DNA from: Escherichia coli
Lineage (GTDB): Bacteria > Pseudomonadota > Gammaproteobacteria > Enterobacterales > Enterobacteriaceae
Length of the DNA: 64,000 nucleotides
Direction: 5' to 3' (one strand)
Assembly: GCF_009931435.1 (NCBI RefSeq)
Contig: NZ_CP043414.1
Shown here: one piece after another, positions 26,635-42,715 of the stretch
How positions within the stretch are numbered: position 1 is the stretch's first letter
Layout: every line of letters starts with the position of its first letter
Made by a program: the position numbers and the translations under genes
Notes under the pieces: generated by a model
What the model saw: only the letters and a program-made list of their open reading frames with translations
What the model was told of the DNA's origin: nothing
Database searches by the model: none

Positions 26635-26641
26635 TTTTTAA

Positions 26642-26666
26642 ATGCCCAATAACTGTTATTGGGCAT
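26642..26666 (+). terminator. Palindromic hairpin 3' of ddlA (probable terminator)
   Basis: ATGCCCAATAACTGTTATTGGGCAT perfect hairpin 8 bp after the ddlA stop; the following T-tract is short, so terminator strength is uncertain. Confidence 0.45.
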
Positions 26667-26679
26667 TTAAGACTGTAAG

Positions 26680-39101: not shown

Positions 39102-40064
39102 TTATTGCACGAAGCGCGAGGTCACGTACTGGCTGTAATCATTCGCCACGGCAGGGACTTTGCCCTGATCTTTCAAAAACTGCGCGGTATCAATGATCGC
39201 TTTATTCACCGGTCCGGTCAGTTCTGCCGTTTGTTGCTGCGGCGTCAGATAGGTATTCCCCTTCACCAGCCCCGGAACGTCACCTTCCGGCACGGCGCTT
39301 AAACGCGCCAGCTTGCTGATGTTTTCCGGCTGTTTCAGCCACGCGTCTGGGTTAGCAATGTACGGTTGCTGAGCATCGATGGCGCTTTTAGCGAACGCTT
39401 TCACGACTTCAGGATGTTTCTCGGCAAAATCTTTGCGCACGACCCAGACGTCCAGTGTCGGCGCGCCCCACTGCCCGACCTGTTCAGAATCGGTCAGCAC
39501 CTTGCCATCTTTTTCCAGGGCGTTAACCGCCGGTGCCCAGACATAAGCACCATCAATATCTCCCCGCTGCCATGCGGCGATAATCGCGGGCGGCTGCAGG
39601 TTCACAATCTCAACTTGCCCAGGTTTAATACCCCAGTGTTTCAGCGCCGCCAGCAGGCTGTAGTGGGTGGTGGAGATAAACGGTACGGCGATGCGTTTAC
39701 CAATGAGATCTTCGGGTTTGCTGATGGTTTTCTTCACCACCAGCGCTTCGGAGTTACCCAGTTTTGACGCCAGCAAGAAGACTTCAATCGGCACCTGTTG
39801 GCTGGCTGCAACCGCTAATGGGCTGGAACCGAGGTTGCCGATTTGCACGTCGCCAGAAGCCAGTGCTCGCACGATGCTGGCTCCGCTGTCAAACTTGCGC
39901 CAGTCCACCGTCGCCCCGCTCTCTTTAGCAAAGGTGTTATCAGCCTGAGCCACTTTCGCCGGTTCAGCGGAGGTTTGATAGGCCACGGTGACGTTCACCG
40001 CCTGTGCCTGAAAAGCGATGAATGCCAGTGCGGCAAGAAGTGTGTTACGCGATGAAATTGCCAT
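39102..40064 (-). CDS. tauA: Taurine ABC transporter periplasmic binding protein TauA
   Basis: 320 aa with signal peptide MAISSRNTLLAALAFIAFQAQA. Confidence 0.93.
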   Translation of the reverse strand: MAISSRNTLLAALAFIAFQAQAVNVTVAYQTSAEPAKVAQADNTFAKESGATVDWRKFDSGASIVRALASGDVQIGNLGSSPLAVAASQQVPIEVFLLASKLGNSEALVVKKTISKPEDLIGKRIAVPFISTTHYSLLAALKHWGIKPGQVEIVNLQPPAIIAAWQRGDIDGAYVWAPAVNALEKDGKVLTDSEQVGQWGAPTLDVWVVRKDFAEKHPEVVKAFAKSAIDAQQPYIANPDAWLKQPENISKLARLSAVPEGDVPGLVKGNTYLTPQQQTAELTGPVNKAIIDTAQFLKDQGKVPAVANDYSQYVTSRFVQ

Positions 40065-40294
40065 GATTGTCTGCTCCCCTGTCTTGTTATGGGAGCAGTA
40101 TTTCGTTGCGGGTCAGTTTGATAAAGGAATTAAAACGTCTTGTTAAGAACAAAGCGTTTTTAGAAAAAAACTGGCAATGGTTAGCGAATATGCGCATTTT
40201 GCTATTTTTAACAAACATCGCCTGGTGCAGCGCTCACGCCTCTTATCATGCATACAAATACTGGGGCCGGATAAATTTTATGCTCCAATGCTAT

Positions 40295-40343
40295 ATACTA
40301 TAGGGGGGTATGCATTGACATATATCATACCCCCCTATAGTAT
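40295..40343. promoter_or_regulatory. frmRAB promoter with FrmR-type operator (G6/C6-tract inverted repeat)
   Basis: Perfect 17-bp inverted repeat ATACTATAGGGGGGTAT (40295-40311) / ATACCCCCCTATAGTAT (40327-40343) bracketing a TTGACA -35 hexamer (40315-40320), with TATAGT at 40336-40341; 27 bp upstream of frmR. G/C-tract plus AT-rich arms is the site architecture of the RcnR/FrmR (CsoR) family. Confidence 0.75.
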
Positions 40344-40369
40344 ATTGCGTGCAGATGATGAGGTGCGAA

Positions 40370-40645
40370 ATGCCCAGTACTCCGGAAGAGAAGAAAAAGG
40401 TCCTTACTCGAGTTCGTCGTATTCGGGGGCAAATTGATGCTCTGGAACGGTCGCTGGAGGGTGATGCCGAATGCCGTGCCATACTCCAACAGATCGCTGC
40501 CGTTCGGGGCGCGGCTAACGGGCTGATGGCAGAAGTGCTTGAAAGCCATATCCGGGAAACGTTTGACCGAAATGACTGCTACAGCCGCGAAGTCAGCCAA
40601 TCCGTTGACGACACTATTGAACTGGTTCGTGCCTATCTTAAATAG
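40370..40645 (+). CDS. frmR: Formaldehyde-responsive repressor FrmR (CsoR/RcnR family)
   Basis: ATG at 40370 (RBS GAGG) gives [48 protein letters not shown]... (91 aa). Confidence 0.9.
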
Positions 40646-40649
40646 CTGA

Positions 40650-41789
<1,140 letters not shown>

Positions 41790-41881: not shown

Positions 41882-42715
41882 ATGGAACTCATTGAAAAAC
41901 ATGCCAGCTTTGGCGGCTGGCAAAATGTGTATCGGCATTATTCCCAATCACTGAAATGTGAAATGAATGTCGGTGTCTATCTCCCGCCAAAAGCCGGGAA
42001 TGAAAAATTGCCGGTACTGTACTGGCTTTCGGGCCTGACCTGTAACGAGCAGAATTTCATTACTAAATCGGGGATGCAACGTTACGCGGCTGAGCACAAC
42101 ATTATTGTTGTTGCGCCAGACACCAGTCCGCGAGGCAGTCATGTCGCAGATGCCGACCGTTACGATCTCGGACAAGGTGCCGGGTTTTACCTGAACGCAA
42201 CGCAAGCGCCGTGGAATGAACATTACAAAATGTATGATTATATCCACAACGAGCTGCCGGATTTAGTGATGCAACATTTTCCGGCAACGACCAGAAAGTC
42301 TATCTCAGGTCATTCTATGGGCGGGCTGGGCGCGCTGGTGCTGGCGTTACGTAACCCAGATGAATATGTCAGCGTCTCGGCGTTTTCGCCCATTGTCTCC
42401 CCATCGCAAGTACCGTGGGGACAGCAAGCCTTTGCCGCGTATCTTGGTGAAAATAAAGATGCCTGGTTGGATTACGATCCGGTGAGCCTTATTTCACAAG
42501 GTCAACGCGTTGCGGAAATCATGGTTGATCAGGGATTGAGTGATGATTTTTACGCAGAACAGCTGCGGACTCCAAATCTTGAAAAGATCTGCCAGCAGAT
42601 GAATATCAAAACGTTAATCCGTTATCACGAGGGTTATGATCACAGCTATTATTTTGTCTCCAGTTTTATTGGCGAGCATATTGCCTACCACGCCAATAAA
42701 CTGAATATGCGTTGA
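41882..42715 (+). CDS. frmB: S-formylglutathione hydrolase FrmB (esterase D family)
   Basis: 277 aa, MELIEKHASFGGWQNVYRHYSQSLKCEMNVGVYLPP...; GHSMGG serine nucleophile motif. Confidence 0.93.
   Translation: MELIEKHASFGGWQNVYRHYSQSLKCEMNVGVYLPPKAGNEKLPVLYWLSGLTCNEQNFITKSGMQRYAAEHNIIVVAPDTSPRGSHVADADRYDLGQGAGFYLNATQAPWNEHYKMYDYIHNELPDLVMQHFPATTRKSISGHSMGGLGALVLALRNPDEYVSVSAFSPIVSPSQVPWGQQAFAAYLGENKDAWLDYDPVSLISQGQRVAEIMVDQGLSDDFYAEQLRTPNLEKICQQMNIKTLIRYHEGYDHSYYFVSSFIGEHIAYHANKLNMR

Follow-up and report, generated by a model that had tools for sequence, protein, structure and literature searches.

What is the long inverted repeat, marked by runs of six G and six C residues, that lies directly upstream of frmR in the 64-kb stretch of Escherichia coli DNA analysed here (hereafter the window), and does it constitute one regulatory site or two? 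As laid out below, it is almost certainly the operator-promoter of the frmRAB formaldehyde-detoxification operon, in which two type I FrmR sites of the CsoR/RcnR family bracket the -35 region, the proximal one covering the -10 region. The element as such is already known, having been experimentally characterised in strain K-12 with identical arms and an identical repressor. The mildly new material is comparative only, in that a 17-mer forming each arm appears to be common to three sensor classes and the doubled layout appears to be restricted.

Anatomy of the repeat and of the frmR promoter

The window stretch carrying the repeat reads ...GCTATATACTATAGGGGGGTATGCATTGACATATATCATACCCCCCTATAGTATATTGC.... 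Its left arm, taken as the distal FrmR site (40295-40311, plus strand), is ATACTATAGGGGGGTAT, a type I site of the form ATAC-TATAGGGGG-GTAT with a G6 tract. The right arm, taken as the proximal site (40327-40343, minus strand), reads ATACCCCCCTATAGTAT on the plus strand, covers the promoter spacer and the -10 region, and is the exact reverse complement of the left arm, with 15 nt between the two. The initial annotation, made from the letters of the window, had called a perfect 17-bp inverted repeat with G6/C6 tracts and a 15-bp spacer; this description holds and even understates the perfection of the repeat, as complementarity is perfect over 20 nt (40293-40312 and 40326-40345, 13-nt spacer) and the full extent of the repeat is 40290-40348, with 23-nt arms containing one mismatch (40290-40312 and 40326-40348) around the same 13-nt spacer. 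Its length is far above chance expectation: in 60 dinucleotide-preserving shuffles of the whole window, in which perfect inverted repeats with a spacer of at most 30 nt were counted, the longest one measured 9-13 nt (mean 10.2) versus the 20 nt observed. The repeat finder returned no longer inverted repeat anywhere in the 64-kb window, and no second copy of ATACTATAGGGGGGTAT was present elsewhere in it with up to three mismatches allowed. The G/C tracts (G6 at 40303-40308, C6 at 40330-40335) are uninterrupted and fall within the 3-8 bp that define type I sites, and each arm shows the flanks of this type, ATA-G6-TAT (6 bp apart) plus ATAC-N9-GTAT (9 bp apart). The two sites face each other at a centre-to-centre distance of 32 bp, with the centre of the repeat at 40319. 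Elsewhere in the window, a perfect 16-nt palindrome, TTAAATGCCCAATAAC-t-GTTATTGGGCATTTAA (26638-26670), directly follows the ddlA stop codon and is itself followed by REP-like sequence; it is probably the ddlA terminator hairpin, and the ddlA-yaiZ spacer is variable, with only 225 of 5425 genomes covering at least 80% of the surrounding 700 bp.

The repeat centre falls inside a consensus -35 hexamer, TTGACA (40315-40320, plus strand), which lies between both sites and had rightly been placed in the spacer from the start. The last six bases of the right arm form a -10 hexamer and consensus match, TAGTAT (40338-40343, plus strand), 17 nt from the -35. The TATAGT originally proposed as the -10 candidate is indeed present in the right arm (40336-40341), but the scanner prefers TAGTAT with its optimal spacing of 17 nt to the 15-nt alternative. 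TTGACA-17-TAGTAT, with 10 of 12 positions matched, is the sole sigma-70-like promoter found by consensus scan in 40000-40700. With the predicted start near 40349, the two sites would span approximately -54 to -38 and -22 to -6. The right arm, overlapping the -10 hexamer, ends 26 nt upstream of the frmR ATG and hence falls within a DUF156 gene's promoter; in between, a sequence reading as the frmR Shine-Dalgarno element (GAGGTG, 40360-40365, plus strand) is the same in all sequences aligned. On the 5' side, the repeat is preceded by an AT-rich block, GGATAAATTTTATGCTCCAATGCTAT (40267-40294, plus strand).

The gene behind this promoter, frmR (40370-40645, plus strand), encodes 91 amino acids including Pro2, Cys35 and His60. 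The encoded protein agrees with K-12 FrmR at every residue (100% identity), and likewise with the crystal structure PDB 5LBM (E = 4e-55). The fingerprint columns (residues 2, 3, 35, 60 and 64) read P-S-C-H-T, which carries the P-C-H-x fingerprint of the FrmR subgroup, and frmA and fghA follow downstream. According to the RefSeq annotation of a 99.4%-identical strain, these two genes encode S-(hydroxymethyl)glutathione dehydrogenase (frmA, 40680-41789, plus strand) and S-formylglutathione hydrolase (frmB/fghA, 41882-42715, plus strand). The upstream neighbour tauA (39102-40064, minus strand) is divergent and belongs to the context outside the operator.

Published binding data and the proposed circuit

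For the K-12 promoter Pfrm, Denby et al. (2016; Sci Rep 6:38879, Fig. 6a, PMC5146963) described a large inverted repeat centred at -29 and comprising two tandem type I CsoR/RcnR-family sites, ATAC-N9-GTAT; the definition of the type I site and the TAC-X9-GTA motif are found in Tan et al. 2014 (PMC3902906). Comparison with this published operator identified the same element: both arms, the -35 and -10 hexamers, the Shine-Dalgarno sequence and FrmR are identical between K-12 and the window, so that the CsoR/RcnR-type architecture assigned to the repeat initially agrees with an existing description of the same sequence. In the aligned region, the window departs from K-12 in the spacer (TC for GA at 40325-40326), at 40349 (G for A) and at three nucleotides of the upstream flank; 5' of about 40267, the window shows the tauA-adjacent arrangement, where K-12 has yaiO. 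The centre-to-centre spacing, counted here as 32 bp, is given as 31 bp by Denby et al. (2016).

FrmR binds the K-12 Pfrm fragment specifically, with a Kd of about 220 nM versus about 3600 nM for an unrelated control promoter, a value for the fragment as a whole; formaldehyde causes loss of binding and dissociation of FrmR and relieves repression of in vitro transcription, and FrmR was necessary for repression (PMC5146963). On a K-12 fragment with identical arms, experiments have thereby shown that FrmR binds specifically, is released by formaldehyde and represses both in vitro and in vivo, which, together with the identity of the two repressors, supports the earlier proposal that FrmR autoregulates frmRAB. 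The published fragment has a different spacer, and the window's T-40325 variant is here assumed to behave alike. Osman et al. (2016; PMC5016687) compared the frm promoters of E. coli and Salmonella in an alignment that indicates the G/C tracts and the T/A-rich repeats, and found binding to the Salmonella operator abolished when one flanking T/A repeat was mutated. More recently, ATAC-N9-GTAT sites moved into a synthetic promoter conferred FrmR-dependent repression, and cutting the native promoter just upstream of the sites led to loss of repression (PMC11127321, 2024). The latter result suggests that the two arms alone may be insufficient. Since the AT-rich block at 40267-40294 is kept in every upstream arrangement aligned and the upstream truncation abolished repression, this block may add contacts, either as an UP-element or as flanking contact DNA. 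In the literature searched, neither a footprint at nucleotide resolution nor mutagenesis of the single arms nor a mapped start was found for the E. coli frm promoter; a sort-seq study of Pfrm (Rohlhill 2017) lay outside that search. A full-text search with the arm sequences gave no matches, probably as such sequences appear in figures only.

A simple circuit would be consistent with these data. Without formaldehyde, tetrameric FrmR would occupy both sites, most simply with one tetramer on each, and would keep RNA polymerase off the otherwise strong promoter TTGACA-17-TAGTAT. Occlusion of the polymerase is thus the presumed mode of repression, the exact contacts being presumptive as well. Formaldehyde, as shown in the literature, bridges Pro2 and Cys35, here of different subunits, and releases FrmR; the basic DNA-binding face is remodelled by this cross-link, and once FrmR has left, frmR, frmA and frmB are transcribed. 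Because frmR is the first gene of the operon, the circuit is negatively autoregulated. One tetramer per arm is our inferred stoichiometry and is not certain, given that Salmonella FrmR loads two tetramers onto a single site in vitro (PMC5016687). For the E. coli operator, BLItz binding data were fitted 1:1, and the stoichiometry was modelled (PMC5146963).

The unit site beyond E. coli

To what extent is one arm a site in its own right? We scanned the exact 17-mer against 100,044 species genomes (298 Gb, both strands), which gave at least 120 matching stretches versus about 35 expected by chance. Among the matches listed, 78 were accompanied by a FrmR homologue detectable with tblastn, and an iterative HMM search placed a DUF156 ORF within 1.5 kb of 91 of the 120. 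At 87 of the listed loci, the E. coli representative included, the 17-mer lies 0-300 nt upstream of a DUF156 gene, and it thus recurs beside genes of this family in other genomes. The taxa represented among the matches listed include Enterobacteriaceae, Janthinobacterium, rhizobia, Sphingomonadaceae, Bacillales, Actinobacteria and Verrucomicrobia, among others. A second arm within 90 nt was found at only two of the 87 listed loci, those of E. coli and E. albertii, the other 85 species having a single site. Because the 17-mer occurs singly upstream of family genes in these 85 species, each arm is, as judged by sequence comparison, a complete, free-standing unit operator of the DUF156 family, and the repeat represents two operators, not one.

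Leaving E. coli and E. albertii aside, the listed loci fall into two orientations. The C6 orientation (ATACCCCCCTATAGTAT on the coding strand) is found at 40 loci, mainly in Proteobacteria, where 9-22 nt separate the end of the site from the ATG and a TTTACA-like -35 precedes the left edge of the site by about 18 nt. The G6 orientation (ATACTATAGGGGGGTAT on the coding strand) is found at 45 loci, mainly in Bacillales and Actinobacteria, at 29-109 nt upstream of the ATG, often with a TTGACA-like hexamer just upstream; here, the full palindromic flank TATAGTA is present in 31 of the 45. According to the fingerprints of the associated regulators, 21 of the listed loci belong to Salmonella-type FrmR (P-H-C-H-E; class III alcohol dehydrogenase downstream), 15 to the DmeR/RcnR type (H-C-H-H; CDF cation-efflux gene downstream) and 39 to the CsoR type (x-C-H-C; copZ/copA downstream), and the orientation of the 17-mer relative to the gene differs by effector class. 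Sharing of the 17-mer across formaldehyde, Ni/Co and Cu sensors was computed here and is consistent with the known type I/TAC-X9-GTA generalisation.

How the doubled layout relates to characterised operators of the family can be seen from several systems. One is the Salmonella-type frmRA operator (Osman et al. 2015, 2016), in which a T/A-rich inverted repeat encloses one C6 tract and which contains the 17-mer in the orientation of the window's right arm. Its carriers (R478, Citrobacter, Enterobacter and others) read ACTATA-C6-TATAGT, are of the formaldehyde-responsive type and have frmA downstream. They differ from the window in having one site only, which stops 9-18 nt short of the ATG and overlaps both the -10 region and the start, and in a P-H-C-H-E regulator that is only 52-58% identical to the window's FrmR. 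The tandem type I sites of the E. coli rcnR-rcnA intergenic region, TACT-G6-N-AGTA (Iwig and Chivers 2009, as cited in later papers), likewise combine a G6 tract, an AT-rich inverted repeat, two sites per promoter and a tetrameric DUF156 autorepressor. The flanks of the RcnR sites abut the G tract, the site centres are 19 bp apart and the effector is Ni/Co, whereas the sites in the window have four extra bases, TATA, between ATAC and G6 on one side, have centres 32 bp apart, are inverted around the -35 and answer to formaldehyde. The DmeR boxes of rhizobial dmeRF (PMC6044271) and the TAC-X9-GTA operators of CsoR (PMC3902906) belong to the same site family as the arms, and some loci of the DmeR type (H-C-H-H, CDF efflux) and CsoR type (x-C-H-C, copZ/copA) carry the window's 17-mer verbatim; such loci differ in effector, in the genes regulated and in having single sites, and characterised CsoR sites are mostly of type 2, with an interrupted G/C tract.

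Two inverted arms are also kept by plasmid-borne frmR genes whose products are about 90% identical to the E. coli protein, with centres 34-35 bp apart versus 32 bp and with degenerate G tracts (GTGGGG/GGGGAG and GGGTAG/GGGTGG), whereas in more distant plasmid FrmR homologues (57% and 53% identity) the -10 is covered by just one site. Among the loci compared, the doubled inverted layout around the -35 is therefore, at the level of sequence, specific to Escherichia and the related plasmid lineage. A cassette of the order frmR-frmA-(VOC protein)-fghA, its FrmR about 90% identical to that of E. coli, was found on 466 plasmids of Klebsiella, Enterobacter, Serratia and others, often beside IS1; examples are a K. 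pneumoniae plasmid (locus L003, 2400-2500), a Plesiomonas plasmid (L004, 1900-2000) and an E. coli plasmid (L134). The frmR copy on the E. coli plasmid NZ_CP114224.1 is annotated as frameshifted.

One may speculate, and we offer this as a tentative and rather doubtful scenario only, that the double operator is a lineage-restricted elaboration of a pan-bacterial unit site, ATACTATA-G6-TATAGTAT, which would be used verbatim by P-H-C-H-E, H-C-H-H and x-C-H-C sensors in at least eight phyla. DNA recognition would then have been frozen while effector chemistry diversified, and a second, half-degenerate copy would have been added upstream of the -35, needed together with a conserved 25-bp upstream block for tight repression.

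Conservation, upstream context and competing explanations

When 5426 complete E. coli genomes were queried with 69 bp spanning the repeat, 5415 of them gave a match, each at a single locus; the median count of two places arises because a palindrome matches on both strands. Multiple intergenic copies per genome, as expected of REP/BIME elements, were thus not seen, nor was there a second copy in the window; the initial annotation had named such multiplicity as what would overturn the operator interpretation, and the interpretation stands. Arm-by-arm conservation rests on an alignment of 11 sequences, namely E. albertii and 10 E. coli strains picked to cover the range of identities. None of the ten E. 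coli strains shows a change in either 17-nt arm, while the spacer and the upstream flank vary; in E. albertii, the left arm is unchanged and the right arm differs by 1 nt (ATACTCCCC). The -35 hexamer TTGACA is kept in 10 of the 11 sequences, strain 38 having TTGAAA. Variation in the spacer concerns positions 40321-40326, which read TATATC in the window, TATAGC in most E. coli, TATAGA in K-12 and TATGGC or TGTAGT in others. The T at 40325, between the -35 and the right arm, is rare (most strains have G), and no more than 3 of 5424 records reach 99% in their match to the 69-bp operator region; owing to this T, the palindrome extends less far inwards than in strain B (GC...GC).

Further upstream, the sequence context differs between genomes. 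Homology on the tauA side stops at about 40202-40208, and on the frmR side it starts at about 40267-40268 in yaiO-carrying genomes, which defines a junction zone at 40202-40267. The tauA-frmR adjacency seen in the window is shared by 593 of 5404 matching genomes; the rest have yaiO (and more) in between, with IS1 as an additional component in strain B. E. albertii has the tauA-frmR adjacency as well (L012, 1168-1475), its whole 308-bp intergenic region being 89% identical, and since the adjacency is common to this species, the window's arrangement looks ancestral, and the yaiO arrangement found in K-12, in B and in the majority of strains seems to be due to an insertion. Altogether, three different upstream sequences abut the promoter, with junctions 17-28 bp upstream of the repeat and never within it; the third of these occurs in strain SCPM-O-B-8794, at a contig end. 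That the repeat itself sits on the accessory breakpoint, as first supposed, was not borne out, as about 22-28 bp separate the repeat from the breakpoint upstream, and there is no sign that the repeat took part in the rearrangement. Strains of the yaiO type carry a poly-C run downstream of yaiO, about 60-80 nt upstream of the left arm and directly ahead of the conserved promoter block; the run varies in length (C10 in K-12, C8 in B) and is absent from the window.

How, then, do other explanations of the repeat compare with two FrmR sites occupied separately? The one with the best prospects, although in our view rather improbable, retains the operator and alters its assembly: either one tetramer contacts both arms with both of its faces, an idea raised by Denby et al. 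(2016; PMC5146963) since the site centres are far apart, or two tetramers sit on each arm (four in total) with the flanking DNA wrapped, as has been suggested for other members of the family. The second version would draw on Salmonella FrmR (PMC5016687) and Streptomyces CsoR, both of which bind a single site as two tetramers, and wrapping or extended contact would be in line with the repression lost once DNA upstream of the sites is removed (PMC11127321). Bridging by one tetramer is difficult to picture, however, as the sites are 32 bp apart (about 109 Å of B-DNA) and the 13-15 bp between them would be too short to loop round a disc of about 45 Å. The spacing of 32 bp in Escherichia versus 34-35 bp in the plasmid lineage indicates that there is no strict helical phasing, and the unit site is self-contained in the 85 other species. 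Much less probable still is that the repeat mainly serves another regulator, be it the paralogue RcnR by cross-talk or an unrelated helix-turn-helix dimer with the long palindrome as its target. Admittedly, family members of the Ni/Co type (H-C-H-H) and of the Cu type (x-C-H-C) in other bacteria use the identical 17-mer, so that sequence alone does not specify FrmR; yet it is FrmR that is necessary for repression and binds the fragment specifically (PMC5146963), the E. coli RcnR sites have a different geometry (TACT-G6-N-AGTA), and Salmonella rcnR-PrcnRA is not induced by formaldehyde (PMC5016687).

Two further explanations, to which we assign only a marginal likelihood each, dispense with a regulator. 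One takes the repeat as a nucleic-acid structure, whether a cruciform extruded from supercoiled DNA or, in a transcript, a hairpin, terminator or small RNA, and appeals to the folding of single-stranded 40290-40348 into a stem of 20-22 bp at -21.1 kcal/mol (z = -6.8). No terminator-like site was called in 40000-40700, though, and there is no T-run; a search of the repeat against Rfam gave only sub-threshold eukaryotic miRNA hairpin models (22-27 bits versus gathering scores of 90-100), so that the features of an intrinsic terminator or a structured RNA are lacking. Moreover, tauA is divergent, which leaves no upstream transcription into the repeat; the right arm ends upstream of the predicted start, which places the repeat outside the frmR mRNA; and no such hairpin could form in the 85 species with a single 17-mer. 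A terminator, attenuator or small RNA is ruled out by the scan of 40000-40700, the Rfam result and the position of the repeat upstream of the predicted start. The other explanation sees in the repeat a REP-like or mobile-element remnant, or the recombination site behind the adjoining accessory-gene junction, for which one could cite the three upstream sequences abutting the promoter within about 30 bp of the repeat, and the IS1 adjoining frmR in strain B and on plasmids. The single locus per genome in 5415 genomes and the lack of another copy in the window rule out a REP-like element. Likewise, a role as recombination junction is ruled out by junctions that lie 17-28 bp upstream of the repeat and never inside it, and by the uninterrupted spacer of the E. 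albertii outgroup: the insertion-free arrangement is common to this species, meaning that the repeat predates the insertion.

The reading as a FrmR operator-promoter with two unit sites thus places a known regulatory element, intact, in a strain whose upstream context is unusual, being ancestral and devoid of yaiO. In practical terms the relevance is modest: Pfrm/FrmR finds wide use for formaldehyde biosensing and, as a dynamic promoter, in synthetic methylotrophy. For such uses, the natural variation described here amounts to a small map of tolerated changes, in which the arms are invariant while the spacer (40321-40326) and, in one variant, the -35 differ. For the family at large, a 17-mer that serves regulators of the FrmR, DmeR and CsoR types may help in the design of orthogonal DUF156-based sensors.
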